This document shows, one piece after another, positions 20,041 to 60,906 of a stretch of 64,000 bases of DNA. This DNA is from a virus. Taxonomy: Duplodnaviria > Caudoviricetes. The position numbers and the translations under genes were made by a program. The stretch spans positions 24,407 to 88,406 of the IMG/VR virus record IMGVR_UViG_3300014613_000021; one strand, given 5' to 3'. Positions within the stretch are counted from its first letter, which is position 1, and each line of letters opens with the position of its first letter. The notes beneath the pieces are model-generated. The model was not told the DNA's origin. It searched no databases and worked only from the letters and a program-made list of their open reading frames with translations.

Positions 20041-20751
20041 TTATCTATCAATTGAATACGCCAATCTCAATGACCAATTTTGATTAAGTTTTTCAATATT
20101 GGGATTTGGATATTTATTCCAATATTCAACAGAATAAACACATTTTATTAACAGTTTTTTCAACAAATTGCAAGTAATTTGAAAATCACAATCAATATCG
20201 TAATCAGAGAAATCGTAAATATTTGGTTTGTAAAAGAAAATCAACTCGGCGAAAATCCTGTCTGAAATATTTTGTTTCAACTTCGGTCGGATAGATAACC
20301 GTATTCTGTTCTGTTCATCAATATCTGAAACAAAAACAGTCTTTTCATATAAAATAGCTGCACTAATAGAATATTTTGCCCTTTGCCTTTTTAGGAATAA
20401 ATATTTTAGTCCAAATAAACCATAATTTTTACTCTTAATATCCTTTATTTCATTAACCCTATACTGGTATAATACAAACGGACTTAAGGTTGATTGTGGC
20501 TTGTAATCAACCTGAAAATATATCTTTAAATCTCTATTTGTTACCCTATTCTCATTTTCTGAATATAGAAATTCACACCCCGTTGAATATTCAAATAACG
20601 AATCCTTTCTTATAACCTCAAATAAACTGTTTAAATTCAAGTTTTGTATCTGTCCTAATGACAATCTACCTCCGGTTTCAAAACTTAGTTTAAATTGAGA
20701 AAAACAAGGTATAAAGGAAAATAGCAATATAGATAAGAAAACAAACCTCAT
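20041..20751 (-). CDS. outer-membrane beta-barrel protein (DUF481/YdiY-like) with signal peptide
   Basis: MRFVFLSILLFSFIPCFS|Q signal peptide; alternating amphipathic strands; C-terminal LRLAYSI. Confidence 0.65.
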   Translation of the reverse strand: MRFVFLSILLFSFIPCFSQFKLSFETGGRLSLGQIQNLNLNSLFEVIRKDSLFEYSTGCEFLYSENENRVTNRDLKIYFQVDYKPQSTLSPFVLYQYRVNEIKDIKSKNYGLFGLKYLFLKRQRAKYSISAAILYEKTVFVSDIDEQNRIRLSIRPKLKQNISDRIFAELIFFYKPNIYDFSDYDIDCDFQITCNLLKKLLIKCVYSVEYWNKYPNPNIEKLNQNWSLRLAYSIDR

Positions 20752-26158: not shown

Positions 26159-27399
26159 TAATTTACAGACTGTGAAACTTCATAAAAATAATTGCCTCTA
26201 CGTTGTAATATTATAATATCATCAGGAGTATAAGCAAAGGTATTACTTATCTTCAAATTTTTACCTTTTACAAGTCCATTGGTTGCTTTTGTTCCGGTAA
26301 ACTCAATATAAATCAATGCCCAATCTGGAACAGTAGACGCAATATCAATGCTATCTATATCTGCTGTTCCTGAAATAACAAAATTATTATATAAACCTAA
26401 TGTTACTGTTGCTGCGCTCGCAACTGTATCACAATCAATTGATGTTATTACTTTATTACATTGAAACAAACCTGATGTCCACAAATTTCCCGTAATCTTT
26501 GTCGTGTCTTCTGTAATATTAAAAAGGGTTGAGCTTGAATAATCAAAAATAAGTCCCGTCTTAAATACCATTGAGTTCTGTTGAACCCTATACTGATTAA
26601 TACCAGAACAAATAAATTCAATAGTATTACTTACAGAACCACCAATTCCTGTTGTAGAACTTGAACGATAAGGTATTAGAGAAGGAACCGTAGATGATGC
26701 CCCAGTTTCCAACAATTCAATTCCATCATTAGCATTAGAAAATATTTTTGTAGGAGTTAAATACCAGGACTTAACATCATTTAAGTAAAACAGTAACGTA
26801 TCGTCAGTTAAATTAGTTATCCATTCATCATCTCCAAAATGAATACCATAAGTTGATTTATCTCCAACAGGAACAAATAAATTAGCTGTTGTCATTAAAA
26901 CACCCTTTCCCTTAATGGTATCTTCTGTTAGTGTTAATAAAGTGGATCGGGGATTGATAATATATGATCCGTTTTTCCCTGAAAGAGTGTCAAATGATAT
27001 ATTGTGAACATTATCTAAACTATCTTGAATATCAGCATTCTTTAAAAACGTAACATCAATCCAATTATGAGTTAAAGAAGTATCGTAGAGTGTAATGTAG
27101 TTGCCGGTCGAATCAGAAAATTCCATAAAATAAGTGTTAATCCAATTGTGGGTTAATGTAGTGTCATAAGGGGTAATATAAACCCCTATTGAATCTTCAA
27201 TATCAATATATCCAACTAATGAATCTATTTTAACTTTACCAGTTGAAATAAATTTAACAGTATCACCTATTTGTATTTGAAGTGTATCTGAACCATGATA
27301 AATAGTTACTGTACTATCAACACACACAACCCTATAAGTTTGACTTATTGCAAAAAATGAAACCAAACTAAACAAAATAGAAAATAAAATCTTTTTCAT
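26158..27399 (-). CDS. tail-fibre-like protein with Sec signal peptide, rich in O-glycosylation sequons
   Basis: MKKILFSILFSLVSFFAIS|Q; 14 D(S/T)(A/I/L/V/M/T) sequons by hand count; fibre-type C-terminus (ASAATVTL...ISGTADI...YFYEVSQS); start moved from 27411 to 27399. Confidence 0.7.
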   Translation of the reverse strand: MKKILFSILFSLVSFFAISQTYRVVCVDSTVTIYHGSDTLQIQIGDTVKFISTGKVKIDSLVGYIDIEDSIGVYITPYDTTLTHNWINTYFMEFSDSTGNYITLYDTSLTHNWIDVTFLKNADIQDSLDNVHNISFDTLSGKNGSYIINPRSTLLTLTEDTIKGKGVLMTTANLFVPVGDKSTYGIHFGDDEWITNLTDDTLLFYLNDVKSWYLTPTKIFSNANDGIELLETGASSTVPSLIPYRSSSTTGIGGSVSNTIEFICSGINQYRVQQNSMVFKTGLIFDYSSSTLFNITEDTTKITGNLWTSGLFQCNKVITSIDCDTVASAATVTLGLYNNFVISGTADIDSIDIASTVPDWALIYIEFTGTKATNGLVKGKNLKISNTFAYTPDDIIILQRRGNYFYEVSQSVN

Positions 27400-27400
27400 A

Positions 27401-28303
27401 TTATTCAACATTTGAGTCTCTTAAAATAATATCAACCAATTCAGTAACATTAGCGTTTTTTGAAAGACAATTTGTTCTTGCGTCATAAACAACAACATTT
27501 TGTGAAGTTGCTGCATAAACATCTTCGGCAGAAGCATGGGTTTTAATCATTGTAACCCCGTCAAGAACTAATTTACCGCCACCTTTCTCAATACAATGAC
27601 TGTTTGCAGAATTTACTTCATTATAAATTTTACTATTAATTATGTCAATTTTTCCCCCTGAAACTTCGATTAATGATTCATCGTCTGCTTTTCTTACTAT
27701 TTCACACCCGGACAACCTTAAATAACCATTTGAAACTGACATCCCGCTTTTTACTCCGGATGTTTTTTCAATATAAAAGTCACCAAGAAAACGTAAATCA
27801 GCAGAAGCATGACTTATATTCACTATATAACCAGCAAGGGTATTTTTTATTATACATCTTCCCGTAAATACAGAAACTATTGCAGTAGATGCTAAAAACA
27901 TTGCCGTAGTTGAAGAAGTATTGTTTATTATAACACCATTCTCAAAATGATAATTAACCCCGTCCTTTAAAATATCGGCTTCATTAAATATGCCATCCAA
28001 AACCCAAATTAAATCCCCTGAAACAGCAGCAGTAACAGCAGCACGTAAGGATGAATAAGATAAAACAATATTTCCTTTAACAGCCGTTCCATCATTGCCA
28101 ACAGATTGAGAAACAAATAAAACCTTATCGCTTACAATAAATGAACTTGTTATTGTACTTCTTAATAACTCCCATGTACTTGACCCGAAATTATAATAAT
28201 ACCATTCATTATCCGTTGTTTTATACCACAACAACTCCGTATTTGTCGGATTTGTTGACCCTCTATAAAAAGATGATATTTGTCCTAAATTAGTTGTTGG
28301 CAT
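27401..28303 (-). CDS. right-handed beta-helix (pectin-lyase fold) tailspike-like protein
   Basis: LFVSQSVGND...SLRAAVTAAVSGDLIWVLDGIFNE cap followed by beta-helix rungs; no signal peptide. Confidence 0.65.
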   Translation of the reverse strand: MPTTNLGQISSFYRGSTNPTNTELLWYKTTDNEWYYYNFGSSTWELLRSTITSSFIVSDKVLFVSQSVGNDGTAVKGNIVLSYSSLRAAVTAAVSGDLIWVLDGIFNEADILKDGVNYHFENGVIINNTSSTTAMFLASTAIVSVFTGRCIIKNTLAGYIVNISHASADLRFLGDFYIEKTSGVKSGMSVSNGYLRLSGCEIVRKADDESLIEVSGGKIDIINSKIYNEVNSANSHCIEKGGGKLVLDGVTMIKTHASAEDVYAATSQNVVVYDARTNCLSKNANVTELVDIILRDSNVE

Positions 28304-28602: not shown

Positions 28603-29805
28603 TTATGTTATACTTGCTAAAATCGTATTTTGATAACTTATATTTGGCTCATTTGGATAATACACAGGGTTTAATGTACCAGAAATATTACTAATGATAT
28701 TACCGTCAATATCCCTCATTATAAAACTTTTTAATCTTGGCAGTTTCCCTCTCACAATCTGAATGTCTGCATTTGGAGTGAAATATTGGTCAGGCACATA
28801 TTTAACGCCACCTGTATTTTTTACAACTTCCATTAATTCATCCCATTCAACCAACTTATCATAAGTCCAAAATCGAAAATCTAAATATTTTGAACCTGCT
28901 ATCTGTATTTCCTTTCTTACTTCATCAGGATCATAACCATTCAATAATTGTACCCTAAAGTCCCAATCTATTTCTTGATATTCGATATTTCTTAACTCAA
29001 CCCCATATATTTGAACATCATAAGAACGTAAATCAGTCAAAGACAAATATTGTTCTGCTTGTTCTAAAATATCACTTAATTCACCTGCCGTTAAATCAAC
29101 CCCGTTTTGTGTTGCTATCGCTAAAACAGTTTGTCCGGTTTCATTTATCCCCTGATAAGATACCCTTAAAACATTATTATTTATTTTTATAAAAACCTGA
29201 GTGAGTTTAGCAAGTGTTCCGGTTGCTGCCAAGTTACATCCGTCTTTTATTCTTTTCCTAAAAATATCATCTTGTTCAGCATCCCGACCTCCAGTAGCCA
29301 TATATTCATTAATACAGTATGAGTGACCAACTGGTTCAGGCGTAACAGTGCTTAATGTTAACGGGTCAACATTTACTTTACTTCCTGTATCAGAGCTTCT
29401 TACTTTTGCATAAGTATAACCTATTGCAGGAATGGTAATATCATCCTCAAGAACAAACGTATACCCATGTGAACCTGTAAAAGTATTTGTAACAATAAAA
29501 TACTGAGTTCCAGGGTCACCAACAAGTCTTACATAAGTTGAAGATTCAGATGCCCCAAATCTGGCAGAAACACCCATAAATTCAGCAATATCATCCAAAT
29601 ACTGACCATAAGCAGAATCTACCATCAAATGTATTTCAACAAGCGATATTTCTTTTAAAACCTTTTGAGCAACCTTCGCTGTACCAAAAGCAACCCCGTT
29701 CAAAACGCTATTGTCGCTTATCTCAGTTACCTCAGAACAGTGATTTAACAACCCTTGAACAAAAAGCTCCTTTAATTCTGATATGGTAGATATTTTTGTA
29801 AACAT
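28603..29805 (-). CDS. baseplate J-like wedge protein
   Basis: DSAYGQYLDDIAEFMGVSAR, GGRDAEQDDIFRKRI, ATGTL. Confidence 0.85.
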   Translation of the reverse strand: MFTKISTISELKELFVQGLLNHCSEVTEISDNSVLNGVAFGTAKVAQKVLKEISLVEIHLMVDSAYGQYLDDIAEFMGVSARFGASESSTYVRLVGDPGTQYFIVTNTFTGSHGYTFVLEDDITIPAIGYTYAKVRSSDTGSKVNVDPLTLSTVTPEPVGHSYCINEYMATGGRDAEQDDIFRKRIKDGCNLAATGTLAKLTQVFIKINNNVLRVSYQGINETGQTVLAIATQNGVDLTAGELSDILEQAEQYLSLTDLRSYDVQIYGVELRNIEYQEIDWDFRVQLLNGYDPDEVRKEIQIAGSKYLDFRFWTYDKLVEWDELMEVVKNTGGVKYVPDQYFTPNADIQIVRGKLPRLKSFIMRDIDGNIISNISGTLNPVYYPNEPNISYQNTILASIT

Positions 29806-38637: not shown

Positions 38638-39141
38638 TTAGCTTACCGGTAATAATATTGGATTGAGATAAGTAAATGACTGATCCATTCCTGAAATCTG
38701 ACCTTCACTTATATCAAAAGACTGACTGTCTGTAAACGCCCCAAAAATAACAGCAAAATCACCATTTTCTATCTCCGTAACAAGTCCTGTCGTAGCGTCA
38801 ATGCCTGATACTGTTGCCTGTTTTTTATAAATATAAATATCAACCCCATTCTCCTGAAGTAAAAGACTGTTTACAAACTCCTCAACAACACCCGTTTCTC
38901 TATGGACAGACTGGGGAAGTCCTGTTGAAACTAAATCAATCGTATAAAATGAACAAGTCAGTGTTCCATTCCACGAAAGAGCCGGTTTTTCCTTTGGAAG
39001 AAGCTCTCCAAGCCCTCTTACATCACCTCGCTGTATATTTTCTGTTACCCGAATGTTTTTCATTTTGCCAATAATCTGACCACCTGCAATAATTATTGCA
39101 AGAGGGGCTGTCATTACCGCTGTATTTGTACTTGATGGCAT
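38638..39141 (-). CDS. tail tube protein
   Basis: IIGKMKNIRVTENIQRGDVRGLGE; directly after sheath. Confidence 0.85.
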   Translation of the reverse strand: MPSSTNTAVMTAPLAIIIAGGQIIGKMKNIRVTENIQRGDVRGLGELLPKEKPALSWNGTLTCSFYTIDLVSTGLPQSVHRETGVVEEFVNSLLLQENGVDIYIYKKQATVSGIDATTGLVTEIENGDFAVIFGAFTDSQSFDISEGQISGMDQSFTYLNPILLPVS

Positions 39142-39175: not shown

Positions 39176-41149
39176 CTAATTAATCATAAATCCTGTAAAG
39201 AAAACCTTCGTTATCTCACTGTTCGGAGTAAACTTATATGTCACCTGATACGAGTCTTGAACTTTAGTTACATTAATAGTTGCAGGATAAAATTTCTTTA
39301 TCAAATTATCTGTCGTTGGAGTGATTGTCCTGGATTGCAAATAACCAATCAGCCAGTCACGTACCCTTTTAGTTGAAAGAGTATATTGATTAACTCCCGA
39401 AGGATTCCCAAATAACTGATTTTTTGCATTAATAACAATCTCCTTGTTCAACTGAGAAGTTATGTTTTTGATTTGAATAACATGAGACGTTCCATCATCA
39501 TTTATCTCATAATCATTTCTTTGAAGTGAATTAACATCCTGAACAATAACGAATTTTCCAAAATCACTGTCATATTCAGTGCAAAGAACTCCATTATCCA
39601 AACATTGAATTTTTTCTTTCTTTGAAAGAACATGAGTTTCTTTGTTATGACCAAGTGACTTAAATGTTCCGGGTATCTGTGGAGCCTGTCCGGCAATACG
39701 ACCAAGAACTTCAGCAGCCTTATAAATAGCCGGATAGTTTTTAAACCCTGTCGAAGCCCACTGAGTTGAAATACCTACTCCACCGTGAACAACCCAAACA
39801 CGGTCAGAATCATAATACTGAGCTGTTGGAATTGATCCGTAAGTCTGAGTAAACTTAGTTGAGTCTTCACCGCCGCCAACAACAAGGAATTTTTCAAATT
39901 TCGCCTCATTAACTATATGGGCAAGTAATTTTCCGTTATCAGCACTTTGAGCATCATCGCCATAATCATTGCAAAGAATAAATGTAAAATCATTCTCCGT
40001 AACAGCGTCCAGAACCTCATCCAGTTTTGTTGTGCTGTATGTTTCTGTCCCGCCATAAGCAAGGTTATAATCTGAATAATTGGTCAAATCACCGGCAACA
40101 AACGCCCCTGTTGCACTTGATGTTTCCAGTTTAAAATATTGATTAAACGTAGAATTGTTTGTCATCCACGTAATAAATTCCTGAACAGTTGAAAATTCCG
40201 GTGACTTAACATAAAGAAGTGGAACAGCATCGTCAACAGAAATATTATCCCACGGATCACCGTCAAAATCTTCACCTTTATATGTTCCCCTGTAAAACTT
40301 AAACAAATATTTTGTAGCGTCAATTTCACCAGCTTCCATTACAGCAGCAAAACCACGTGTAAGATTTACTCCATCAACGCCACCAGTCAATGTAGCTGGT
40401 GCCGTTCCTGTTGCCGTTCCGGTAACGACATAAGTTCCTGTATAAGCGTTTGCGTCAGAAGCAACCTCGGTTCCTCTCGGCTGTCTCGCTGTTACCGTTA
40501 TAATAGCAGCGTCTGAAGTAGCCGTATAACCATGTGTTCCAGTCAAGTCATTAATAGCCTCTGCAATTGCAGCAGCAGTTAAATCAATAGAAAGGGGGAC
40601 AGCCGGAACTGTATATGAACCAAGCGTTATCAACGTAGCCCCTTCTGTTATTTTTGGTGTATGTGTGTCACCAGTCGCACCAACCGCTGTAACGGTATAA
40701 TTTCCTGTTGCCAGGGTTTCATCTTCCCTTCTTCCATTTCCAACAATACCTTCATCTCTCATCTGGATTGAAGCGGCTCCATTCGTGAAAGTAAAAACCA
40801 TATTTGCGCAAGTTGTCGTTGCAGCTCTCGCAAAATAAACATTCGGAACACCCCTTGAGGCATATCCGTCCGGAAAAAATAAAGGAAGTCCAAGCAACCA
40901 CCACAAACCGCCTTTTGTTAATGACCTGTAATCAGCAATATTATCAACCGAATAAATTGAATCAAGTCCTGTTAAAAGTTCCCCGTCAATACCAGAACCA
41001 CCACCAAATTCAGCTCCATTTCCAGTATCAATGATTAAAATACGGCCAAATGTTGCCGGTGAAGGAGGGTTTGTTTCACCTGATTTTATTGTGGAATATG
41101 CACCCGGAAGTTCAATTGTCGTTCCGTCAAATACAAATTTAGTTGCCAT
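39176..41149 (-). CDS. contractile tail sheath protein
   Basis: FVFDGTTIELPGAYSTI N-terminus, C-terminal sheath domain; 657 aa. Confidence 0.9.
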   Translation of the reverse strand: MATKFVFDGTTIELPGAYSTIKSGETNPPSPATFGRILIIDTGNGAEFGGGSGIDGELLTGLDSIYSVDNIADYRSLTKGGLWWLLGLPLFFPDGYASRGVPNVYFARAATTTCANMVFTFTNGAASIQMRDEGIVGNGRREDETLATGNYTVTAVGATGDTHTPKITEGATLITLGSYTVPAVPLSIDLTAAAIAEAINDLTGTHGYTATSDAAIITVTARQPRGTEVASDANAYTGTYVVTGTATGTAPATLTGGVDGVNLTRGFAAVMEAGEIDATKYLFKFYRGTYKGEDFDGDPWDNISVDDAVPLLYVKSPEFSTVQEFITWMTNNSTFNQYFKLETSSATGAFVAGDLTNYSDYNLAYGGTETYSTTKLDEVLDAVTENDFTFILCNDYGDDAQSADNGKLLAHIVNEAKFEKFLVVGGGEDSTKFTQTYGSIPTAQYYDSDRVWVVHGGVGISTQWASTGFKNYPAIYKAAEVLGRIAGQAPQIPGTFKSLGHNKETHVLSKKEKIQCLDNGVLCTEYDSDFGKFVIVQDVNSLQRNDYEINDDGTSHVIQIKNITSQLNKEIVINAKNQLFGNPSGVNQYTLSTKRVRDWLIGYLQSRTITPTTDNLIKKFYPATINVTKVQDSYQVTYKFTPNSEITKVFFTGFMIN

Positions 41150-45409: not shown

Positions 45410-46882
45410 TTAATTTGCAGAATAAGCTCCAATATTGATAATCTGAACCATCTTACCAGGGGCTTTCAAAATCGGAGTTATATACATCAATACAACAAAC
45501 CTGTCAGCAGTAGAAAGACGTGCTAAATCCATTTTCATCAAAGGAGCAAGCTGACGAACAGTCCAAACTTCTTCAGCATTTTCAATAAGAAGACACTTAC
45601 TTGTGTTTGAAATAAATCTGTTCCTGTCTCTTATGAGACCAGCAGCACCACCATCATACCCGGCAGCTAACTGTGCTGTCGAAACCTGAAAAATAGGGTA
45701 CAGTTTTGTAGCTGCAACCAAAGTAGTCGGTGTTTTTTCGCTTCTGTAAATTACATAACCTGTGGCTACATAAGTTCCAGAACCGGCAGTAAATTTCAGA
45801 TCAACAGATTGAGTTGCACCTACTGTCAATAACGCTGAACCAAGAGCTACAACAGCAGACTCTCCATACTGATTTATAGCAGCCACACCGTAATAATAAT
45901 CGCCTGCATAAGCAGCTGCAAACCTGTTCAGTGTATCCGTTGCAACAGCCTTCGGGGTTGAACCATCGGCAACAGGAGAAGCCGGAGCCTTTGTACTGGT
46001 TGCATTATCAGTTGTGAATCTTGCAGGGTTTTCACGCATGAATTTATCGTATCCAAAGTCAATCCTTCCAAAGGAAGTTTCAACACCCTGAACACGCTGA
46101 CCCATATAGGCATTTGATACTTGAGCTGTATTCGGCTGAATAAGTTTCTTTGAATAAAACTGTTTTACAAACCCGGAAATAACAGCAGTAGGGGCCATAA
46201 GAAGATCACCGTAAGAATTATTGTTAATAAGGTTTTCATTCCCTTGTTCAACATTTTCTTCTTTCAGATAAGAACCCCTCAAATCAATAACACTCAGCGA
46301 ATCCTGCCACAAATCAAGAGTAGCAAAATAATCTTTCTGTTGTTTGTAAAACCCGTCAAACTGAACAGGAACAACATCAGCATCACCTTTACAAAGATAA
46401 TAATCAGCAGCCCTGAGAACAGTCATTGTACCAGATTTAATTTCCTGCCTCACAATATCAACAAGTGCCCTTATCAACTGAGCCTGATGAGTTACTGACC
46501 GAGTCTCACCAATATATTTGACAAACTGTGACTGACGGCTGTAAGAAGTTGAGTTTTCTTCAGGAAGACCACCTTCTTCAAAAAAACCGCTTACATTACC
46601 GTAACTTTCCAGTCTTTCATACTGCTCAACAGTTGAATAAGCCGGAGACTTTGGTACTTTCTGCCACAGAGCTAAGTCCTGCTCTTTAAATTCCAAATTA
46701 ACAAGCGTCTTTTCAAGTGATTCAACTTTAAGTGAACCTGCGCTTGTTGCGCTCGGATCAGTCCCCAAAAGATGACCAACCGACATAGCTTTGTTAAGTT
46801 CTGCTACTGTCTGAGCACTCTCAACACCAAAACCAGTACCAAATTGCTCATACGCTGATAAATCAATTCCTAAATTTTTCAT
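45410..46882 (-). CDS. major capsid protein (Herelleviridae-like)
   Basis: LKVESLEKTL, LWQKVPKSPAYSTVEQY, QLAPLMKMDLA; follows protease and scaffold. Confidence 0.88.
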   Translation of the reverse strand: MKNLGIDLSAYEQFGTGFGVESAQTVAELNKAMSVGHLLGTDPSATSAGSLKVESLEKTLVNLEFKEQDLALWQKVPKSPAYSTVEQYERLESYGNVSGFFEEGGLPEENSTSYSRQSQFVKYIGETRSVTHQAQLIRALVDIVRQEIKSGTMTVLRAADYYLCKGDADVVPVQFDGFYKQQKDYFATLDLWQDSLSVIDLRGSYLKEENVEQGNENLINNNSYGDLLMAPTAVISGFVKQFYSKKLIQPNTAQVSNAYMGQRVQGVETSFGRIDFGYDKFMRENPARFTTDNATSTKAPASPVADGSTPKAVATDTLNRFAAAYAGDYYYGVAAINQYGESAVVALGSALLTVGATQSVDLKFTAGSGTYVATGYVIYRSEKTPTTLVAATKLYPIFQVSTAQLAAGYDGGAAGLIRDRNRFISNTSKCLLIENAEEVWTVRQLAPLMKMDLARLSTADRFVVLMYITPILKAPGKMVQIINIGAYSAN

Positions 46883-47837: not shown

Positions 47838-49346
47838 TTATTTAATATTCATAAACTCATCATATTTTTCTTTATTTTCAAATTTCCATCCAGAATAATA
47901 CTCAGGCAAATTATATGATTTATAAGTGCTGTCAAACCATCCGTACTTTCCGTTCATCTCTCTTGCCGTTTCATAAAAATATTCAGGCTTATCACGAACT
48001 CTTTCAATTTTTTTTGCATTAGTTTGCAAAAAATCAAATTTTCTTTGCTCTAATGATTTTCTTTGTTCTAAAACTATTTTTGCCTCAGACTTAGAAATAT
48101 TTAATTTCTCTCTGTAACTGTCCCAATTTTTAGAAATATCAGCAAGTTCAGCAGAATTTAAAAAATAAGTTTTCTTCATGCCTCCACCATACTGTTTAGG
48201 AAGAAATCCAGCATGATGCCACTCCATATTAGGTACTGCATATTCCAAAACACCCTTAATTTCAGTAACATCCAATCCGGTTGCTTTCTTAAAGAGTTGT
48301 GTTGCCTCACCAAGTGTCAACTTACCCTTGTCGTCTTTTGCAGACTCATGCCTTCTACTAACATATTTTACAGAACTCAACCCCCCACCAACTAAATAAA
48401 CATCTTTATCATGTTTAAGTTTAGAATATTTATCATAAATATTTTTTAATCCCTCCTTTTTCTTTTCCTCAGTAATTTCACCCACACTTTCTTTGCCAGC
48501 CTTATCTTCAATGGTTTCCTTTTTACTACCATACTTCTTTCCAACCCGACCAAGTTTACGATTTTCAGGAGTATCCTCATAAATACCACTTTTAGCTTTC
48601 TCCAAATCCTCGTCAGAAACTAAACCCAATTCATGTCCTTTAACAATAATACAACACGCCTCATCAAAACTTAGTTTACTATCCTGTTCCAAAATTTCAA
48701 TATTAAACCCCTTATCCATCATATATCTTTTTCCATCACATGAAATATCAAAAATATGATCGCTTTCACCTTTTTCAATTTCATCTGTTTCAGATTCATA
48801 GTCATAATCAACAAAAGGTTCTTCGTATTCACCCTTCATTATTGAAAGAAATGTGTTGCTATTTTTTGGAAACGGAGTAATAGCAATGCCCGTTATTAAT
48901 GCCTTTTTTATTCGTTTTGGGTTAATGTCATCTCTCTCTAATGCCGTCCCTTCAATACTCCATGCAAGTTTTCTCTTTGACCCGGATTTCTCAAGAACCT
49001 CAGCAAGCTCATAAATCTGTTGCGCCTTTTTTGAATGAGACCACAATTTACCTTCAATATAAAAATCTTTTCCTTTATTTACCACAACAGCCTTTGTTGG
49101 TTCTCCAACCAAAGCCGTTGGATCATGTTTTGCCTGGTGATTATAATTCAGATAACCGTAATCCAGTAATTTATCAAACTGAAACCCGGAAGGCTCAAGA
49201 GTTTCTCCGTCAGAATCTTTTGTCATACTGGACGCAACACCCTTAACCATCATTACGTCTTCTCCGGTTTTCGGGTCTTTCCCTTTTTCAAATCCTGAAA
49301 TAGGTATTGTAAAATTAAATTTATCTTCTTTAGTCTTTGCTTCCAT
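47838..49346 (-). CDS. prohead protease with long modular C-terminal extension
   Basis: [25 protein letters not shown] protease motifs in the first ~170 aa; then [12 protein letters not shown] and an EWHH-containing domain. Confidence 0.8.
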
Positions 49347-50739
49347 CTTCTTCTTTGTTTTCGATTTTATCCAATATGACTGAAAGATTCATGATTAAAT
49401 CCAAATCGTCCATTCCTTTCTTTGTTGAAAATACATAGTTACTATGTTCATCTTCAACAAGCACAATTTCATAAGGTTCTTTAACCTCACACATATAATA
49501 ATATATAATTACTTCATCGCTTTCATAAATGTAAACTAAGTTACATTTTTCAACCTCCAGTCCGGTTTCTTCAATCAACTCTCTTTTTGCAGCATCTTCC
49601 GGTTTTTCTTTTGCATCAATATGTCCTCCGGGCAAACACCACTTGTCTGGCTCAAAATCTGATTTCTTTGTTCTCTTTAATAAAAGAGTTCTTCCTTTGC
49701 TGTCTTTTACTATACAGTCCGCAAACTTAGTTTTCTTTTCTGTTTTTGCTTTTTCAATTAAATCATAATCAAAATCAATTATATAAATGTCTTCCTCATC
49801 TTCTCCTTTACTTAACCCCGATTCAGAAAAAGCAATAGCCAAAGCCTGTTCCCTGTCTGTCACTACCTCGCCACTACCTGAGTGAAGGGTTCCCCTTTTA
49901 AACTCCCCCATCACAGTTTCAAATTTTTCCTTTCCCTTCTTCTCCTTTTTTATTGAAACAGATTCAGGTTTCTTACTTTCTTTCTTTTCAGAAGCCTTTT
50001 GTAATGAATCCTTAATTCTTTTTATTATCCTATCCCTTTCAACTTCATTTTCAAACTCTTCTTCCAATGCCTTTAAAATATGATCTGCTTCCTTTCTTTC
50101 TCTTTCATCTTTCAAATCATCATATTCAAGATTTTCATTGTGTGATTCCTGATTATTTAATAACTGTTCCCAAACATAAATACCTGTTTTTCCCTTTATA
50201 AGAACTTGCCCGTAATACTTTCCTCTTGGTGTATTTGGAAAATATTTTGAAGAAGCAGAAACTCTTTTTTGTGCTTCAGTCATCCTTTGTTCATCAACCA
50301 TCCCTTTTTCAAAAGCATCCAAAATAGTAAAATAAGCATCCTTTATATTGTTCTCTTTTTTATACTGTTCAATAGCTTCTTTTAAATCGGGGTTTCTTTT
50401 TAAAAGATTTTCCTGAGCAAACTTAGCTTTCTCAATCGAATCCTTAACCTTACTTATATTATCAATATATTTTGAAAAGTAAGTTTCATATTTCTTTTGA
50501 AGAATAACCTCTGTTTGAAATGTATCCGGATTTCCGGCTTTTTCAAACAACTCAATTTTTTTATTATAATCCCTTGAAACAATATCATGCTCCTTTATTA
50601 ATTGAAAAAGATCATTCCTTCCCTTTTCAATCACTTTTTCAAATTCTTCATATTGAGTAACTTTGTCCTCAATAGATGAACCCTTAAATATTGATAAAAT
50701 AGTTTCCCTTAAACCCATAATTAAAACCCTAATGCACAA
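49330..50739 (-). CDS. modular protein: coiled coil + DUF6496-like + Nudix hydrolase
   Basis: [35 protein letters not shown] (DUF6496-like); Nudix box [23 protein letters not shown]. Confidence 0.8.
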
Positions 50740-51340: not shown

Positions 51341-51775
51341 TCATTTTGTGACAAAATTAAATATCAGATCAAGCCATAAAAATATACAGAATATCCCGGC
51401 AACGATCTTGACTGTCCAGTGAACCTTATAAATCAACCTATCAATATCGCTTGTCTTGCCCCTATATGACCATTTTTCCTGCAACAATTGATTAATCCGA
51501 CCGTCAAACCAATGCCAGTACGTTATTCCGAAAATCAGAAATATCTCTGCTGCCTGTATCCAGTTGTCGATATGAACTCGATAGGCAAACATGACGATAA
51601 TAAAATAGGTGATAACACGGAGCAAAAACTGAAAACGATGCCATATCTTGCTAATATCAGAATGATTGTCGGGATTAATCTTACCGTATTGGATTATCCA
51701 GAAATTAAGATGTGCTGCAATCTCAGGTATAATCAGGCTGATAGTCAGAATTGATATGTAGTTCCAGATTGTCAT
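51341..51775 (-). CDS. multi-pass membrane protein
   Basis: About four hydrophobic segments. Confidence 0.65.
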   Translation of the reverse strand: MTIWNYISILTISLIIPEIAAHLNFWIIQYGKINPDNHSDISKIWHRFQFLLRVITYFIIVMFAYRVHIDNWIQAAEIFLIFGITYWHWFDGRINQLLQEKWSYRGKTSDIDRLIYKVHWTVKIVAGIFCIFLWLDLIFNFVTK

Positions 51776-51954
51776 TTATTTAGCCAATCTTTTATTATCG
51801 CTATTATTCCGTAAAAAAATCCTGTTACCGCAACTACACATAGAATCAGCAGACCGATTCCCCACCAGGGGGAATGTAGCAATCCGAATGCCGAGTCGAA
51901 AATAATTAATCCGGCACAGACAACTACAAGAAATATAGGTATCAAATGCTTCAT
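51772..51954 (-). CDS. small two-TM membrane protein (holin-like topology)
   Basis: 60 aa, two hydrophobic helices; overlaps both neighbours by 4 nt. Confidence 0.55.
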   Translation of the reverse strand: MKHLIPIFLVVVCAGLIIFDSAFGLLHSPWWGIGLLILCVVAVTGFFYGIIAIIKDWLNK

Positions 51955-52271
51955 TCTTCAAACAGTTCTTTGATCAGATTATACTTAATCTGTTTCGCCC
52001 GCAACGCCTCTAAACGCTGAATAGACATTATACTGTCCTGTACGTTCATTTCTAAATCCATCTGCATATTTCCAATAACTCGATTAACATAAGCAGAATC
52101 CATTGCCGGAGCGTTTACTTCCTCTGTAACGGTTACAGAACCCTTGCCAAATGTGGAAACCGTCTTATAGACAGTATCATTGTTTGCAAGTATAATCGGG
52201 GTTGTCGTAACCGTCTGACACCAAGCAGACAAAACAAATAATGAACAGATAATTGTTAGTAATGTTTTCAT
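51951..52271 (-). CDS. small exported protein with Sec signal peptide
   Basis: MKTLLTIICSLFVLSAWC|Q; 3 of its 4 Asp are in DTV, DSA and DSI sequons. Confidence 0.65.
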   Translation of the reverse strand: MKTLLTIICSLFVLSAWCQTVTTTPIILANNDTVYKTVSTFGKGSVTVTEEVNAPAMDSAYVNRVIGNMQMDLEMNVQDSIMSIQRLEALRAKQIKYNLIKELFEE

Positions 52272-53670: not shown

Positions 53671-56328
53671 TTAAAAGATATACCATTTATTTTTTGAAAA
53701 AATATATTGCAGAATATAACTATCATTTAATGCGAGGGTGACAGTTGCTGCACCATCAATTGTATCCGCTCCATCTGCCACTATTCTGACAGTATTATCA
53801 GCATTAATGCACTTTATATAATAAACAGTTTCGTTGTATATTGTTCCTGTCGGCAATGTAATATCAACTGCTCCACTTGTTCCATCTGCATAAACAAAAT
53901 TATTTGCATGATTCAATACTTGTGTTGTTGTATAAATATTGTTTTTTGCCTTTTCTCCGCCGTTGATTTTCAGATAATCAGCAGAAAAATCACCATAAAT
54001 CAAAGGAGTCGCCGTATTTGAATTATCAATATACAATTTATTCGAGCCTGTTTCACTATATCCTGCCTGATAACCGATAAAAACATTACTTGCCCCTGTC
54101 TGATTAGAAAAACCTGCATCGCGACCGAAATAACAATTATAATTTCCTGTCGTCAGGGAATTCCCCGCATTAAATCCGACCGCCGAATTAGCCTCACCAT
54201 TATTAATATTATAAAAAACCTGATAACCGATTCCAGTATTATATTGAGCCGTGCGCACAAGATAGGCACCCTTATATCCTATTATAGTATTTCTTGTACA
54301 GGAATTACCTGAAACGCCATACATTGCACTACTTCCAATTGCCACATTAAATAAGCCTGCCTGATTATATACTAATGAATTACTACCGATTGCCACATTT
54401 TCATATCCGGTCGTTACGTAATTCATTGCCGATCGACCAAAGGCCATGTTATTATTTGCTGTTGTACCCGCATATCCTGCATAATTACCAATGTAAACAT
54501 TATAGTATCCAGTATTGTTATTTGCTCCGGCATCATAGCCTATAAATACATTGTCCGTTCCTGTTGTGGTATTATAACCTGCATAATTACCGAGAGCAGT
54601 ATTGAAATTACCGGTTGCAGTACCGACAGCACCACGTAAAGCCACATAACCAATACCAATATTATTATTCACATTTCGATAGCGTCCTGCACCAATGCCA
54701 ATGAATAAATTATCAGTTGAATCGCAATACTGGCCAGCAAGCGAGCCGATGAATGTATTGCGCTGACCTGTATTTAATGAATAACCTGCACTATCACCAA
54801 TAAGTGTGTTATTTTTCTTATAGAAAGTATTATTACCTGAATTGCCTATACACAAGGACGTTTCAGAGCCGGAAGGTATCCTAATAAGATTGACATTATT
54901 CTGCTTGTATGCTTTCTTAGAAGTTATATTTATATTACCATAAATATCATCCCCACTTGTACTGACACGACCCGTATCAAGTGTCGCTAATTTTATCAAT
55001 CCAGAATTTATATCTTGGAAAACAAGATCATTTGTAGCAACACTTTTAAATATCTCAGTATTATTATCTGTAAATTTCAAATGTTCCTCAATCATTGCAG
55101 AACTTTGTATGTATGTTATTCCTGCACCACTGGCATCAAGGAAGATGGAATCACCAGAAACAGGAGCAAGTTCTATATCTCCAACATTCTCTGTACTTAA
55201 AACAAGTGGAACACTTGAAGCCCGTATTTGTCCACCAGTTAATCTAAAATCACCAGTCCATACTGGCTGACCTGTGATTGTATCTGCATCAATATCCAGT
55301 TTTGAACAGGCATGTATAACAGATGCAGAAATTGTATCATGGCAATTCTTTAAACTATCAGCAAAATCTGCTCTGTATAGCCATAATCCAGAGGTATCAA
55401 TTGGCTCATTAGGCCATCTTGTAATGCTAAATTTACCAGTAGTTTGGTCTTTTACAAGTATTTTATATGTAGTTGTATCATATATATAATCAAATGGTCT
55501 ACGAGCATAAATAAAACCATTAATAAAATTAATATATTTATTTGTTGTGGATGTAGAGTCAAATGTAAAAGACATTTTCTTATTTCCATATAAATAATTA
55601 TTAGAATAAGACATAATGCCAACAGGTCTTATATATAAAGAATCAGTACCAGCAACCATCTTAATAGTAGATCCACCATGACTTGCACGATTTAATATAT
55701 TCAACATTGTTTCATTATAACTCTGTGCTTTATCAAGAGTTAAATCACTCCAAATAATATCTCCTCCTGTTGTGTTTACTTTTCCAGTATCTGCAATCTG
55801 TACATAGGATTTACTCGCATAATCAGAACTATCCGACACCCATACAGGATCGGTCTCTGTATATGTCGCAGGTAGCCATTTGCCCATAGTATCATAAGGT
55901 GTGATGTAGTTTCCGGTACTGTCAGAAAAACGAACAAAATACATATCTGTCCATGTTCGGGTAGCATTGTCAGTACTATCTGCCTTCTCTGCAACAGTAA
56001 TGTATAATGTATCAATATTATACTTTGTTGCAATCTTTAAAATTGTATCAGTCCAATTAAGATAATATCCAGGAGGCTGATGACCAAGACTATCAGCATT
56101 TTCAGCAGAAATACTACCTATATCAATATCACTAAAATCAAATAAAATACTGTCTCCTTTGAACACATATTTCCCTGTCCTAAGAAAATATTGCTGCATT
56201 GAATCATTTCCCATTATCCATATATCAGAAAGGGTATCAACATAATGAGTTTGATTGCCAACTTCCCCTTGTGCTTTTACAAATTGAAATGAAATGAGTA
56301 AAAACAAAAACAAAAGCAACTTTTTCAT
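53671..56328 (-). CDS. long tail-fibre/adhesin-like protein with Sec signal peptide, Gly-rich beta-repeats and many O-glycosylation sequons
   Basis: MKKLLLFLFLLISFQFVKA|Q; 19 sequons by hand count; NxxIGxxAG repeats; fibre-tip-like C-terminus (DITLP...DTIDG...KWYIF); start moved from 56361 to 56328. Confidence 0.75.
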   Translation of the reverse strand: MKKLLLFLFLLISFQFVKAQGEVGNQTHYVDTLSDIWIMGNDSMQQYFLRTGKYVFKGDSILFDFSDIDIGSISAENADSLGHQPPGYYLNWTDTILKIATKYNIDTLYITVAEKADSTDNATRTWTDMYFVRFSDSTGNYITPYDTMGKWLPATYTETDPVWVSDSSDYASKSYVQIADTGKVNTTGGDIIWSDLTLDKAQSYNETMLNILNRASHGGSTIKMVAGTDSLYIRPVGIMSYSNNYLYGNKKMSFTFDSTSTTNKYINFINGFIYARRPFDYIYDTTTYKILVKDQTTGKFSITRWPNEPIDTSGLWLYRADFADSLKNCHDTISASVIHACSKLDIDADTITGQPVWTGDFRLTGGQIRASSVPLVLSTENVGDIELAPVSGDSIFLDASGAGITYIQSSAMIEEHLKFTDNNTEIFKSVATNDLVFQDINSGLIKLATLDTGRVSTSGDDIYGNINITSKKAYKQNNVNLIRIPSGSETSLCIGNSGNNTFYKKNNTLIGDSAGYSLNTGQRNTFIGSLAGQYCDSTDNLFIGIGAGRYRNVNNNIGIGYVALRGAVGTATGNFNTALGNYAGYNTTTGTDNVFIGYDAGANNNTGYYNVYIGNYAGYAGTTANNNMAFGRSAMNYVTTGYENVAIGSNSLVYNQAGLFNVAIGSSAMYGVSGNSCTRNTIIGYKGAYLVRTAQYNTGIGYQVFYNINNGEANSAVGFNAGNSLTTGNYNCYFGRDAGFSNQTGASNVFIGYQAGYSETGSNKLYIDNSNTATPLIYGDFSADYLKINGGEKAKNNIYTTTQVLNHANNFVYADGTSGAVDITLPTGTIYNETVYYIKCINADNTVRIVADGADTIDGAATVTLALNDSYILQYIFSKNKWYIF

Positions 56329-56930: not shown

Positions 56931-57701
56931 TTAATCACTCTCAAACTTACTCTTTTCAGGAAATAATTTTTCAATGACTTCCTTTAAATTATGAGTCAAC
57001 CCTCTATTATTAAAATTCAAATATAATTTTCCACTAATCAATTCCATTAATTTATTAACTGAATACCCATTGTGTTGATGAAATTTAATAAGTCTGTTAC
57101 CTATATAATTATGTTTTGTTATCACAATAGTATTATAATAAAGTGAATTTACAATATACTTTTTGTTCTCCCAATCATATTGATTCATTACTAACTTATA
57201 ATCCTTTTTACAAATCAACTCAGGGATATGTATATCATATTTATAAGTAGTTAATCTTCTTTTTCTTAATTCATCAAAAGTATTCCTGCATCTTTCTAAA
57301 TAATCATCTTTTAAATTTTGATAATTTTCATCTAATTCAAACCAGTCATCTTCAAAATATGGAGTAACTAATTCTTCACCTTCCAAATTTCCTAAAAGAA
57401 TGTGGTCATCTGAACACCTCAATATAAATTGAGAAATTTCAAGTCTTTCACAACCCTTTATTATCCTACAAATCATGCTTGCAGCTTTGTTGTTCACATA
57501 AGAGTCCCTTGATTCTATAAAAATTGCTTCATCACTTAACCAATCCGGCTTAACTCCAATAACATAAATATTTCCAAGTTGAGGAAAATAACTAACCAGA
57601 CTTCTTATTGAATACCTTATTTCCCAATTATCACCAAATTTACTTGCCCCACCTAAAGGATATATTACGTCAATTTTTTGCATCAAAACCCTTCTTTTCA
57701 A
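56931..57701 (-). CDS. Stealth-like sugar(-phosphate) transferase
   Basis: DVIYPLG, EIRYSIRSL, IYVIGVKPDWL, SDDH. Confidence 0.6.
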   Translation of the reverse strand: MKRRVLMQKIDVIYPLGGASKFGDNWEIRYSIRSLVSYFPQLGNIYVIGVKPDWLSDEAIFIESRDSYVNNKAASMICRIIKGCERLEISQFILRCSDDHILLGNLEGEELVTPYFEDDWFELDENYQNLKDDYLERCRNTFDELRKRRLTTYKYDIHIPELICKKDYKLVMNQYDWENKKYIVNSLYYNTIVITKHNYIGNRLIKFHQHNGYSVNKLMELISGKLYLNFNNRGLTHNLKEVIEKLFPEKSKFESD

Positions 57702-58500
57702 TATAACTTTCCAAAATATTTAATAAAACTAAATACTCACTGTCAAAATAAACACTTAATTGTTCCCACTCGTTTGATTCCTTCAATTGTTTATATAACT
57801 TAATTCTTTTTTCACTAACACCCCACCCTATCTCTCCATCAATAAACCTGTTTGGAGAAAAATGAATACCAAAAACAGGTCTGTAATCAAATGTTATATG
57901 TGAATATTTCTTACTCTCATTAAAATATACAGGCAAACCGTGTTTTTCCTCCACTATTTTAAACAATAACTGTTCATCTGAATCAATACACCTACCAGAA
58001 TTAATAATTGAAATAATTGAATCTAAATACTCTTTTGAAACACGTTCATAATAATCTTTTGTGTGAACAAAATGAAGTCCGGTCAATCTGTCTGAGTTTT
58101 TTCTAACTATATTTGAATAACATTTTCCTATACACATTGAGTGTTCTGACAATAATTCTGAAATATTTTGTTCAAGAACAAGTATATCAATATCACCTAT
58201 ATATGTGTATTCTAATTTTTGTACCGGAGTTTCAACAAACCGTATAGCATTTGGATTAAAAAATTTTTTTCTTCCCCACTTTTCAAGTTGCTGATTATAC
58301 CTTCTTATTAAAAACCTTCCCGAATAAAACCTTTCTAAAATCTCTTTTATATTATAAAAATAACCCGGTTCATCTGTCATTATTTCAACAAAAGAATCCG
58401 AGTTACTCCATAAAACAGAAACCATATAAGGTAAAACAAACTGTTTGTATTTACCAGTTGCAACTGTAAAAAAATTAGTATTTAAAGATTCTCCCACCAT
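57670..58500 (-). CDS. putative glycosyltransferase (GT-A, DxD)
   Basis: YIGDIDIL, DEQLLF, GIHFS. Confidence 0.55.
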   Translation of the reverse strand: MVGESLNTNFFTVATGKYKQFVLPYMVSVLWSNSDSFVEIMTDEPGYFYNIKEILERFYSGRFLIRRYNQQLEKWGRKKFFNPNAIRFVETPVQKLEYTYIGDIDILVLEQNISELLSEHSMCIGKCYSNIVRKNSDRLTGLHFVHTKDYYERVSKEYLDSIISIINSGRCIDSDEQLLFKIVEEKHGLPVYFNESKKYSHITFDYRPVFGIHFSPNRFIDGEIGWGVSEKRIKLYKQLKESNEWEQLSVYFDSEYLVLLNILESYIEKKGFDAKN

Positions 58501-59177
58501 TTCTTTTTTAAATAAACCGGATTAATCCAAACAGAATCACTCTGAGGCCAGATTATTTTTAGTTCAATCATTGTGAACCCATTATTTATTAAAAATCTTT
58601 CACAATCACTATATAGTTTCTGTCCCTTCCATATCTCCTTATGCTCACACTCAATATGAATTATCTTTACATTCCTTAATTTATTTCCAAACCCAGACAA
58701 TACCTCATAAGACACCCCCTCAACGTCAATTTTAAGAACATCTATTTCACTTGTTAATTCATTAAATACCGAATCAAATCTTTTCTTTTCAACTATTGTA
58801 ATATCATATTCTCTATTATCATTTCTACTTAATAAAGAGGACACCCCTTGATTCTGTTTTATATCAGTTCTTATTGCATGAAATGGAACACCATCTTCAT
58901 CTTTATCTCCAATGGCATAATCAAAAACATTTATTTCAGAATATTTTTTCTTAATATTTTTATTGTAAACAGGATGAGGCTCAAAAACAAAAACATTCTT
59001 TCTGTCTATACTGAAAAATTCACAAAGAAAAACAGCGTCATTACCATTCAATGAACCAATCTCAAATATATTGTTTGGAACAATAGTTGTACAAGATTCA
59101 ATAATTCTTGCAAACTCATTCATATTAATCTGTATAAAACTAAAATTTTCCACCAAATTGATTCTTATTGTGATCAT
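58482..59177 (-). CDS. FkbM-family methyltransferase
   Basis: IFEIGSLNGND, FVFEPHP, IDVLKIDVEG.SYEVLSG. Confidence 0.85.
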   Translation of the reverse strand: MITIRINLVENFSFIQINMNEFARIIESCTTIVPNNIFEIGSLNGNDAVFLCEFFSIDRKNVFVFEPHPVYNKNIKKKYSEINVFDYAIGDKDEDGVPFHAIRTDIKQNQGVSSLLSRNDNREYDITIVEKKRFDSVFNELTSEIDVLKIDVEGVSYEVLSGFGNKLRNVKIIHIECEHKEIWKGQKLYSDCERFLINNGFTMIELKIIWPQSDSVWINPVYLKKKWWENL

Positions 59178-59826
59178 TCTTTATAAAATAATTAGAAAAT
59201 ATATCATTTGCATCTAAACAATTAAATACAACACCTAATTCATTTGCAAATAACCAAGATATATACGGTAAACTTATCTGGTCTCTCCTACTCCACTTTT
59301 CAACCTCTCTCCACCACAAATCAAAAAATAGCTTTTCATTTGAAGTGAGTTTTGGTCTTACAATCACACCAGTTTGAAACAACCCCCACTTTTTAGGAAA
59401 TTTTTTATCTATATAATCACAAACCTGATCTATTATTATTTCTGGACTATCCTTTTTTAATTTAATACAAGCATCACCCTCGTCATATAAACAATTCCTT
59501 TCCGGGTGTTTCATTAAAGAAATTGTTTCCAATCCAAAACATTTTTCCTTGATAAATTGGTCAAGATCGCAATTTATCTGTATGTTTCCATCAACCCAAA
59601 CAGATAGATCGTACTTACTTACATATAAATAACTAAGTATCTTTATCTTTCTGGCTAACTTAACTTGATGAATTGACTTATTAGTTATTCTTATTATATT
59701 CCAAAAATCTGATTTTAATTTTTCATTATCTGTAAAACAAAGATAGTTCCATCCATCAGTGATAATTTTTGGAGTGAGTAAATTATCATAATCGCCGGTT
59801 ATAACTGTATAGACTGCTTTAGTCAT
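59140..59826 (-). CDS. DUF616/TOD1-MUCI70-like glycosyltransferase
   Basis: VYTVITGDYD, LCFTD, WVDGN, HPERNCLYDE, RDQISLPY. Confidence 0.8.
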   Translation of the reverse strand: MTKAVYTVITGDYDNLLTPKIITDGWNYLCFTDNEKLKSDFWNIIRITNKSIHQVKLARKIKILSYLYVSKYDLSVWVDGNIQINCDLDQFIKEKCFGLETISLMKHPERNCLYDEGDACIKLKKDSPEIIIDQVCDYIDKKFPKKWGLFQTGVIVRPKLTSNEKLFFDLWWREVEKWSRRDQISLPYISWLFANELGVVFNCLDANDIFSNYFIKNDHNKNQFGGKF

Positions 59827-60361
59827 TCAATTTTTCACGGTTAAATATTCTCCACTTAACTACATAACCTTCATCAATAAATTTCTTTACTTTGTCCCTT
59901 AGTTCCTTTTGTTTTGTACCCTGAATAGTGCTATCATTTAACCTTTTCTCAGCAACCAAAACACAAGCATCAGTATCTGTATGTTTATTCCCTCCATGAG
60001 CAAGAACGTATTCAAAAGAAATCCCATCTCTTTCAAGTATAAATACATCAACTCCATTTCTTTTTTCAATTCTTGTATAAATAACAACAACTGTATCTTT
60101 TAGTAAAGGAGAATACCTAATACCAACACTATAACCTTCACTATTTGCCGGAATAGCCGTTATTTTTGGTATTTTTATTCCCTTAGCCCTTACAACATCT
60201 TCCAGTGTTTCGCAAAAATATTCATTAGAAATATAAATCTTTCCTAATGTTGTCTTTGTTGTTTCGTCTGTTCCAAAAGTATCACGATAGTGATCTATAT
60301 ATATCGCCAACCCAGCGACAATCTTTGTTTGTTCTATTGCAACCCTTTCTCCCTCAGTCAT
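59819..60361 (-). CDS. DUF5675-family protein
   Basis: TLGKIYI...CETLED...TAIPA, AHGGNKHTDTDACVLV. Confidence 0.75.
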   Translation of the reverse strand: MTEGERVAIEQTKIVAGLAIYIDHYRDTFGTDETTKTTLGKIYISNEYFCETLEDVVRAKGIKIPKITAIPANSEGYSVGIRYSPLLKDTVVVIYTRIEKRNGVDVFILERDGISFEYVLAHGGNKHTDTDACVLVAEKRLNDSTIQGTKQKELRDKVKKFIDEGYVVKWRIFNREKLND

Positions 60362-60906
60362 AATAAATGTAGTTTTTGTACTTGCGGATTTATACTACCT
60401 AATCTATATAAATGAAAAACATAAACCCCTTTCATTAACAATATTTTCTTACCTGCATTAAGTAATTTCCTGCTCATTAATGTATCAACCCCTAATATTC
60501 CTACATTTTCTTCAAATTTAAACCCTTCATCCCATGTTTTTTTTTGCATTATCATTAAATGACCTGAAATCGGCTTGGTAATCTCCTTTACTTCACTGTA
60601 ATAATCATTTTGAAGAGTCCTTGCAATAATGTGATGCTGAAACATATCTGTATTCTCGGAAATTTCACCAGAATAACATTGAGAAAGTTCCCCAACTCTA
60701 TTAGTCAAACAAGTAAACATCCCTGTATCTGGATGTGACTGTATAATGCTATTTATTTGGGCTCCATAACAAGGTACAAGAAAACAAACGTCCCCGTCCA
60801 TCAAACAAACCCAATCTTCGGGGTCTTGGACAAGGGACATCTCATAATTATATGCCTTACCTATATCTTTTTCTAAAGAATAGCAAGACCTGTATAAAAC
60901 CTTCAC
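60358..60906 (-). CDS. GT2-like glycosyltransferase
   Basis: IGKAYN, WVCLMDGD, ISGHLMIM, VYVFHLY. Confidence 0.7.
   Translation of the reverse strand: MKVLYRSCYSLEKDIGKAYNYEMSLVQDPEDWVCLMDGDVCFLVPCYGAQINSIIQSHPDTGMFTCLTNRVGELSQCYSGEISENTDMFQHHIIARTLQNDYYSEVKEITKPISGHLMIMQKKTWDEGFKFEENVGILGVDTLMSRKLLNAGKKILLMKGVYVFHLYRLGSINPQVQKLHLL

Follow-up and report, generated by a model that had tools for sequence, protein, structure and literature searches.

The window studied here, the final 64 kb of a viral contig of 88.4 kb from IMG/VR (record IMGVR_UViG_3300014613_000021; 32% GC, 78% complete), encodes an 885-residue fibre-like protein, P0001, which is likely to be exported through the Sec pathway of the infected bacterium and O-glycosylated by that host. 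Read from its sequence, the protein joins a leader followed by glutamine, a marked excess of the tripeptide D-(S/T)-(A/I/L/V/M/T), here called the sequon, and a C-terminal half that matches phage tail-fibre families. Whether this fibre ends up on the virion is weighed further below. The gene and its parts are:

53671 to 56328, minus strand: P0001, putatively exported, sequon-rich, fibre-like protein of 885 residues (open reading frame and translation; PHROG matches in the C-terminal half)
56272 to 56328, minus strand: predicted signal peptide, residues 1-19, with Gln20 at +1 (sequence, AlphaFold helix, homologue leaders)
54919 to 56271, minus strand: N-terminal half, residues 20-470, with 16 of the 19 sequons (count against 3.5 expected)
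55306 to 55344, minus strand: Cys329-x11-Cys341 loop around a sequon (NCHDTI...HAC), with the 12-residue spacing kept in P0002, P0003 and P0157
53959 to 54918, minus strand: repeat shaft, residues 471-790 (predicted local confidence, pLDDT, 80-95; tblastn; trimer contacts)
53671 to 53958, minus strand: C-terminal tip, residues 791-885 and stop codon, a small beta domain that packs into the trimer model

The first ATG of P0001 lies 10 nt past the stop of the preceding gene, and the translation opens with MKK, 13 hydrophobic residues and VKA|Q, a leader of the Sec/signal peptidase I (SPI) type of which AlphaFold models residues 2-15 as a helix. Throughout this work leaders were called heuristically, by a crude hydrophobicity and charge rule, the (-3,-1) rule, Gln at +1 and conservation of the leader in homologues; on this heuristic call, residues 1-19 followed by Gln agree with what an earlier note on this DNA had read from the letters. 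Gln at +1 after an SPI cut is the Bacteroidetes Q-rule (PMC5837995), and the predicted cut leaves Gln at +1 in each of the window's four clear leader proteins. The homologues P0003 and P0004 also open with leaders and then Gln, and leaders are kept in P0003, P0004 and P0155-P0164 despite divergent mature N-termini. P0001 is not of the lipoprotein (signal peptidase II, SPII) type, having Gln and not Cys at +1 and its first mature Cys at residue 329. No type IX secretion system (T9SS) C-terminal domain (TIGR04183, TIGR04131, Por_Secre_tail) was found in P0001 at E <= 0.01 in NCBIfam and Pfam, in agreement with the absence of such a signal in the earlier note, and neither an S74 domain nor a YadA-type anchor had a match in Pfam or NCBIfam. 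T9SS cargo, lipoprotein, autotransporter anchor and S74 chaperone were ruled out for P0001 on these model searches. Because it lacks a lipobox, a T9SS domain and a beta-barrel anchor we see no route for P0001 across the outer membrane; after export it should be a soluble periplasmic trimer with no evident way to the cell surface.

P0001 contains 19 sequons of the form D[ST][AILVMT] where shuffled sequences gave 4.3 +/- 2.0 (1000 shuffles, none of which attained 19; z 7.5). They are unevenly spread, with 16 in residues 20-470 (3.5 expected), two in the repeat region and one in the tip, which reproduces exactly the earlier hand count of 19 with about 16 in the N-terminal half. Seven control motifs were counted in the same way and six of them were at or below chance: the mildly raised one was N[ST][AILVMT] (10 against 6.1, p 0.09), and the others included E[ST][AILVMT] (2 against 1.2), the reversed motif (2 against 4.3), D[ST] followed by any other residue (5 against 6.8) and a permuted motif (5 against 4.3). 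An artefact of composition was ruled out as the cause of the excess by the shuffles together with these seven controls. The two proteins that the earlier note had used for comparison also hold up, a leaderless 927-residue tail protein having 2 sequons (4.1 expected) and a leaderless 300-residue protein none. In Bacteroidota this O-glycosylation motif is confined to non-cytoplasmic proteins and shows near-complete occupancy (review PMC12871550).

The signature goes beyond the single gene of the earlier note, as it is found in three leader-bearing late proteins: P0001, a second fibre-like protein (p417) and a small unrelated one (p106). The latter two, and the leaderless neighbour of p417, are:

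26158 to 27411, minus strand: p417, second sequon-rich, putatively exported fibre-like protein, 417 residues from the first ATG (homologues, sequon count)
27401 to 28303, minus strand: 300-residue leaderless protein with 0 sequons (sequence count)
51951 to 52271, minus strand: p106, 106-residue leader protein (AWC|Q) that ends in a charged helical tail and has no relation to the fibres

The probable start of p417 is the MKK at 27399 and its leader ends AIS|Q; it has 14 sequons against 3.1 expected (z 6.6). The p106 gene lies in the same tightly packed operon as P0001, and its product has 3 sequons against 0.3 expected (z 5.6). Over the whole contig 39 sequons fall in the 7 leader-like open reading frames, where 8.1 are expected, and 62 in the remaining 101, where the expectation is 61.7; pooled with the related loci L002, L003, L006 and L007 the figures are 99 against 24.0 for leader-bearing frames and 106 against 103.3 for the rest, and the small leader proteins of L002 and L003 share in the excess. 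Within the p417 family 10 of 12 homologues have a leader, each with 2.8-5.6x the expected count (pooled 81 against 19.4), whereas the remaining two, without leaders, contain 0 and 1 sequons against 1.6 and 1.3 (0-0.7x). By contrast with P0001, the 62 leader-bearing, mostly cellular proteins that carry the shaft repeat have a median sequon ratio of 0.74x and only 2 of them reach 3x or more. The density of P0001 is therefore above composition-matched expectation and the excess is linked to leaders, as the earlier note had proposed to check against other frames and homologues. We conclude that the sequon excess tracks export rather than fold.

Two further proteins of other phages touch on this signature. 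DAC19 (MT074139), a cultured phage of Bacteroides thetaiotaomicron, encodes at 90520-91041 a 173-residue protein with a lipoprotein-type leader (LIGC|K) and 4 sequons against 0.4 expected, which may be a small host-glycosylated phage protein. A homologue of the p417 tip at 4224-5555 of locus L009 (IMGVR_UViG_3300028831_000215), a phage of 62% GC, has 1 sequon against 2.0 expected, and its leader ends SQA|AF and is not Bacteroidota-like in look. Leader-bearing phage fibres may thus not be confined to phages of Bacteroidota.

Structure prediction and homology together describe P0001 as a probable homotrimeric fibre protein made of phage tail-fibre modules. The shaft is a beta-roll or beta-solenoid with turns of about 17 residues of the N-x-x-x-G-x-x-A-G type, a repeat with 37,272 matches in the library searched. 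The C-terminal half is matched by PHROG families 4636, 6002 and 23837, which cover tail spikes and virion structural proteins, and tblastn aligns residues 507-790 with annotated tail fibres or spikes from cultured phages of Pelagibacter, Roseobacter, cyanobacteria and Bacillus. Fold matches of the shaft are weak and go to YadA-like heads (E > 0.02), and a Foldseek search against the PDB returned nothing at E <= 0.001. The trimer prediction suggested by the earlier note was passed: three copies of residues 600-885 scored 0.96 against 0.00 for the best of three controls, on a benchmark in which 20 of 30 proteins known as pairs from solved structures, and 1 of 23 known as single chains, attained that mark. 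Contact agreement between runs was at least 96%, pLDDT of the partner chains at least 92, and the contacts were periodic; the pass may reflect a resemblance to trimeric beta-roll fibres and adhesins of known structure. The tip is near-identical in P0002. Megablast and tblastn of the fibres found no close cultured relative.

The sequon-rich N-terminal half is modelled with low AlphaFold confidence, as is p417 (pLDDT about 30 for both), and in the ESM Atlas the leads for residues 20-470 all stayed below threshold and pointed to viral fibre clusters (score 0.89). Residues 94-158 are related to residues 50-124 of p417 (BLASTP, 40% identity, E 7e-7), and several sequons fall within sequence motifs conserved with P0003 and P0004. 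The Cys329-Cys341 pair that encloses a sequon is a candidate periplasmic disulfide.

The contig, with 107 of its 108 open reading frames on a single strand, belongs to a contractile-tailed phage (myovirus) by PHROG matches to head, sheath, tube and baseplate proteins:

45410 to 46882: major head protein
47838 to 49346: prohead protease
39176 to 41149: sheath
38638 to 39141: tube-like protein
28603 to 29805: baseplate wedge

Its host is very likely a member of the Bacteroidota, since its phage's capsid protein shares 47% identity with the one in Bacteroides thetaiotaomicron phages DAC16-23 and 38% with the one in Chryseobacterium phage MA9V-3, and the genes from protease to baseplate are collinear with both MA9V-3 and DAC19. 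In addition P0003 was found on a Bacteroidetes metagenome-assembled contig.

The fibres appear to move between phages as modules. P0002 is almost letter-identical to P0001 over its C-terminal 560 residues and has a different N-terminus, and P0157 combines a leader and a P0001-type shaft with a p417-type tip. Phage-like contigs carry all the nearest relatives of the tips and of the N-terminal half of P0001, and the fibres are the only genes common to these otherwise unrelated phages: in an unrelated phage P0004 is encoded in the interval from portal to protease gene and is followed by a small sequon-rich leader protein, and the phage-like contig of P0003 encodes two small proteins of this kind. 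The neighbours of the p417 homologues in L006 and L007 had next to no PHROG matches. In the window the p417 gene lies inside the baseplate block and overlaps its neighbours; it and the 300-residue gene are inserted between two genes that adjoin in MA9V-3, those of the baseplate wedge and of a 539-residue protein. The 300-residue protein has no homologue in MA9V-3 or DAC19, whereas both flanking genes have one. Because the fibre genes are absent from MA9V-3 and DAC19, the closest cultured relatives, the genomes present them as mobile, dispensable add-on cassettes in this lineage. Where the P0001 block would be, MA9V-3 encodes a 1459-residue leaderless protein (L012 40216-44595; MA9V-3 89216-93595) upstream of Nudix-like and protease genes; it has 6 sequons against 5.8 expected and no homology to P0001.

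The genes around P0001 are transcribed in the order sugar enzymes, two small frames, P0001, frames of 278 and 187 residues, p106, two small membrane proteins, a Nudix protein, the protease and the capsid gene. Two features of this setting and of the tail region are of note:

56931 to 60906, minus strand: cluster of leaderless sugar-modifying enzymes (Pfam, PHROGs)
20041 to 20751, minus strand: DUF481 protein of outer-membrane-barrel type, leader CFS|Q (Pfam PF04338, E 4e-17)

The first comprises Stealth_CR2-like, FkbM methyltransferase, TOD1/MUCI70-like glycosyltransferase, second glycosyltransferase and DUF5675 proteins, which might remodel the host O-glycan or else a surface polysaccharide; a link to the fibre is speculative. 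A phage-encoded membrane oligosaccharyltransferase was ruled out, no frame of the contig having more than two membrane segments. The DUF481 protein has 1 sequon against 0.5 expected and no homologue in MA9V-3 or DAC19; its gene sits just downstream of the tail genes, a position that recalls the lambda moron lom. At 51341-52271 on the minus strand p106 overlaps with genes for a 60-residue protein with two membrane segments and a 144-residue protein with an N-terminal one. This trio may be a lysis cassette, holin- or spanin-like, and its small proteins had no family match. A 469-residue protein with DUF6496 and a C-terminal NUDIX domain is encoded at 49330-50739 on the minus strand, in the stretch that separates the fibre block from the prohead protease; its homologues in MA9V-3 and DAC19 have just 226-235 residues.

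We propose the following course of events. Late in infection P0001 would be synthesised behind a Sec/SPI leader of Bacteroidota type that can be cleaved off, and the Sec translocon would take it out of the cytoplasm, whereupon signal peptidase I would cleave past Ala19 and bare Gln20, which under the Q-rule would probably become pyroglutamate. The mature protein would fold and trimerise in the periplasm, where the general O-glycosylation system of the host would glycosylate many of the 19 sites, chiefly those of the N-terminal half. Without lipobox, T9SS signal or anchor it would stay soluble in the periplasm until lysis, and when lysis mixes the compartments P0001 and p417 would dock as accessory host-recognition fibres on particles built in the cytoplasm. 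Of the corresponding proposal in the earlier note, a fibre routed through Sec and glycosylated by the host, the route is backed by the leader, the motif-specific sequon excess, the predicted trimeric shaft, the lack of a T9SS signal and the probable Bacteroidota host; the display on the infected cell offered there as one outcome is unlikely, as P0001 has no lipobox, T9SS C-terminal domain or beta-barrel anchor. Taken as a whole, with docking on virions after lysis included, we give the proposal slightly less than an even chance. Docking is slightly favoured because p417 lies in the baseplate block, because the modular evolution of the fibres resembles that of receptor-binding proteins, because P0001 and p417 have an N-terminal segment in common, because no integrase was found in the 78% complete contig, and because three proteins with like leaders in Cellulophaga phage phi18:3 (gp085-gp087) are annotated as virion proteins from tandem mass spectrometry (MS/MS). 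More broadly, and only tentatively, we speculate that there is an extracytoplasmic branch of phage morphogenesis, in which Sec-exported fibres form periplasmic trimers, receive a host O-glycan perhaps retailored by phage enzymes, and join the particle at lysis.

Several observations weigh against this proposal. Tailed-phage particles assemble in the cytoplasm, so that docking would have to wait for lysis. The P0001 gene lies upstream of the head genes, outside the tail block. Neither MA9V-3 nor DAC19 has leader-bearing fibres or a sequon excess. The window phage itself retains a candidate for a conventional leaderless fibre, the 927-residue protein, which is homologous to a 785-residue MA9V-3 protein with a tail-fibre-PHROG C-terminus. 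The shaft repeat is also found in thousands of cellular leader-bearing proteins, and it is possible that a phage has captured an exported fibre of the cell type. The three phi18:3 proteins are sequon-poor, each with 1 against about 3 expected. Finally P0002 (UniRef A0A6M3KR47, 'putative tail protein' from a viral metagenome) has no annotated leader and yet 12 sequons against 3.3 in its first 300 residues; this is either a miscalled gene start or a genuine exception to the link between leader and sequons, and its N-terminal relatives are too distant to settle the start.

The main rival view of P0001, which we consider possible if somewhat doubtful, is that of an exported and glycosylated accessory late protein that is not part of the virion and acts in the periplasm or after lysis. 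Such a protein could mask receptors or glycans, with superinfection exclusion as the result or, as with T5 Llp, progeny kept from adsorbing to debris, or it could be a free adhesin or a decoy fibre. It would face no topological barrier to virion assembly, and it would suit add-on cassettes that are absent from MA9V-3 and DAC19, whose fibres are ordinary, in a phage with a conventional fibre candidate of its own. P0001 and P0004 are indeed encoded in head-proximal gene strings beside small leader proteins and not among tail genes, and the DUF481 barrel gene of the tail region resembles a moron of the kind of lambda lom. Cells, too, have exported fibres of this build, the MAT fibres of Bdellovibrio (PMC10769870) for example. 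However, receptors that face outward are beyond the reach of a soluble periplasmic fibre before lysis, and the exclusion proteins known so far are small lipoproteins or membrane proteins, not 885-residue trimers. The swapping of tips and the place of p417 in the baseplate block resemble receptor-binding proteins, and leader proteins were detected by MS/MS in virions of phi18:3. A gene for lysogenic conversion in a prophage is weakened as a candidate by the lack of an integrase and by relatives isolated as free phages, in a contig that is 78% complete.

Two other explanations fit the data poorly. It is very unlikely that P0001 is a host cell-surface fibre gene, recently captured and without a role in the phage life cycle. 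Among cellular proteins of Bacteroidota that have a leader, the shaft repeat is certainly very frequent (leaders are present in at least 62 of the 149 top library matches), but such cellular proteins lack the richness in sequons, the sequences closest to the N-terminal half and to the tips are phage-borne, two paralogues have been retained in tightly packed late operons, and several unrelated phages have kept the module. We give least credence to an ordinary cytoplasmic tail fibre whose N-terminus is no working signal peptide and whose sequons are a habit of the fold: P0002 and the sequons within motifs common to P0003 and P0004 could be read in this way, but the excess is shared by the unrelated p106 and the small leader proteins of L002 and L003, is missing from leaderless tail proteins of the same phage and leaderless p417 homologues, is not mirrored by the control motifs, and comes with Gln +1 leaders that recur in homologues with differing mature N-termini.

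If P0001 does travel through the periplasm and is glycosylated there by its host on the way to the particle, this would be a new step of phage assembly; the parts of tailed phages described to our knowledge are all made and assembled in the cytoplasm. Host genes for secretion and glycosylation would then be determinants of phage infectivity, and fibres with host-type sugars would face bacteria, enzymes and animal immunity, which would matter for Bacteroidota phages of the gut and the environment. Should the proteins not be part of the virion they would still form a new class of large glycosylated envelope proteins encoded by phages. In either case the combination of sequons and leader offers a cheap marker that predicts a Bacteroidota host and flags exported phage proteins in metagenomes.

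Our literature searches found no paper on an exported or host-glycosylated fibre of a tailed phage, in agreement with the earlier note, which knew of no description of this route. There are partial precedents in the Q-rule proteins of Porphyromonas gingivalis prophages and in gp085-gp087 of phi18:3. The former are signal-peptide proteins of unknown function, read as an adaptation to host secretion (PMC10367356); they belong to temperate phages and are not described as fibre-like, and that paper speaks neither of sequons nor of glycosylation (the string 'glycosylat' has 0 occurrences). The latter (NC_021794; L005 2892-8584) are three adjacent late proteins with Sec-type leaders before Gln, annotated as structural virion proteins of a cultured Bacteroidota phage. 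phi18:3 is a podovirus, and gp085-gp087 were ruled out as homologues of P0001 or p417, with which they have no sequence similarity. Going by their sequon counts, export-type leaders on virion proteins are not always paired with sequon enrichment. We found no paper that discusses these leaders.

Other phage proteins resemble P0001 in one respect or another. T5 Llp, Cor of phi80 and N15, and lambda Lom are signal-peptide proteins encoded beside receptor-binding genes and act at the envelope of the infected cell. They are small lipoproteins or barrels that are not known to be glycosylated, unlike the trimeric fibre predicted here. In mycobacteriophages, phage glycosyltransferases add sugars to capsid and tail-tube proteins in the cytoplasm, whereas the route of P0001 would be Sec export and the periplasmic system of the host. 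Mycobacteriophage virion glycosylation is mentioned in PMC11256854.

Among cellular proteins the MAT fibres of Bdellovibrio bacteriovorus (PMC10769870) are like P0001 in having a signal peptide, a long trimeric beta part of the phage-fibre type and swappable tips; they have a conserved beta-rich N-domain and a trimeric beta-helix and function outside the cytoplasm. They are cellular genes of a predator, many with an S74 chaperone-protease that P0001 lacks, and no O-glycosylation sequon signature has been described for them; the likeness is one of build. Substrates of the general O-glycosylation system of Bacteroidota (PMC12871550) have, like P0001, an N-terminal export signal and D-(S/T)-(A/I/L/V/M/T) in soluble non-cytoplasmic regions, and the motif is enriched over chance solely in exported Bacteroidota proteins. 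Unlike these substrates P0001 is encoded by a tailed phage of the lytic type and is made of tail-fibre modules; the sequon density of P0001 and p417 is 4-5x chance, against the median below 1 in cellular leader-bearing proteins with the same repeat.

Conventional fibres such as those of Pelagibacter phage HTVC112P, Roseobacter phage CRP-7 and Prochlorococcus phage P-SSM2 (PHROG 4636) are homologous to P0001 over residues 507-790, and with them it has in common a predicted intertwined homotrimer, a small tip domain and modular exchange of tips. The fibres of tailed phages, as far as we know, are made in the cytoplasm without a leader; P0001 differs from them in its leader, in the Gln at +1 and in its dense sequons.

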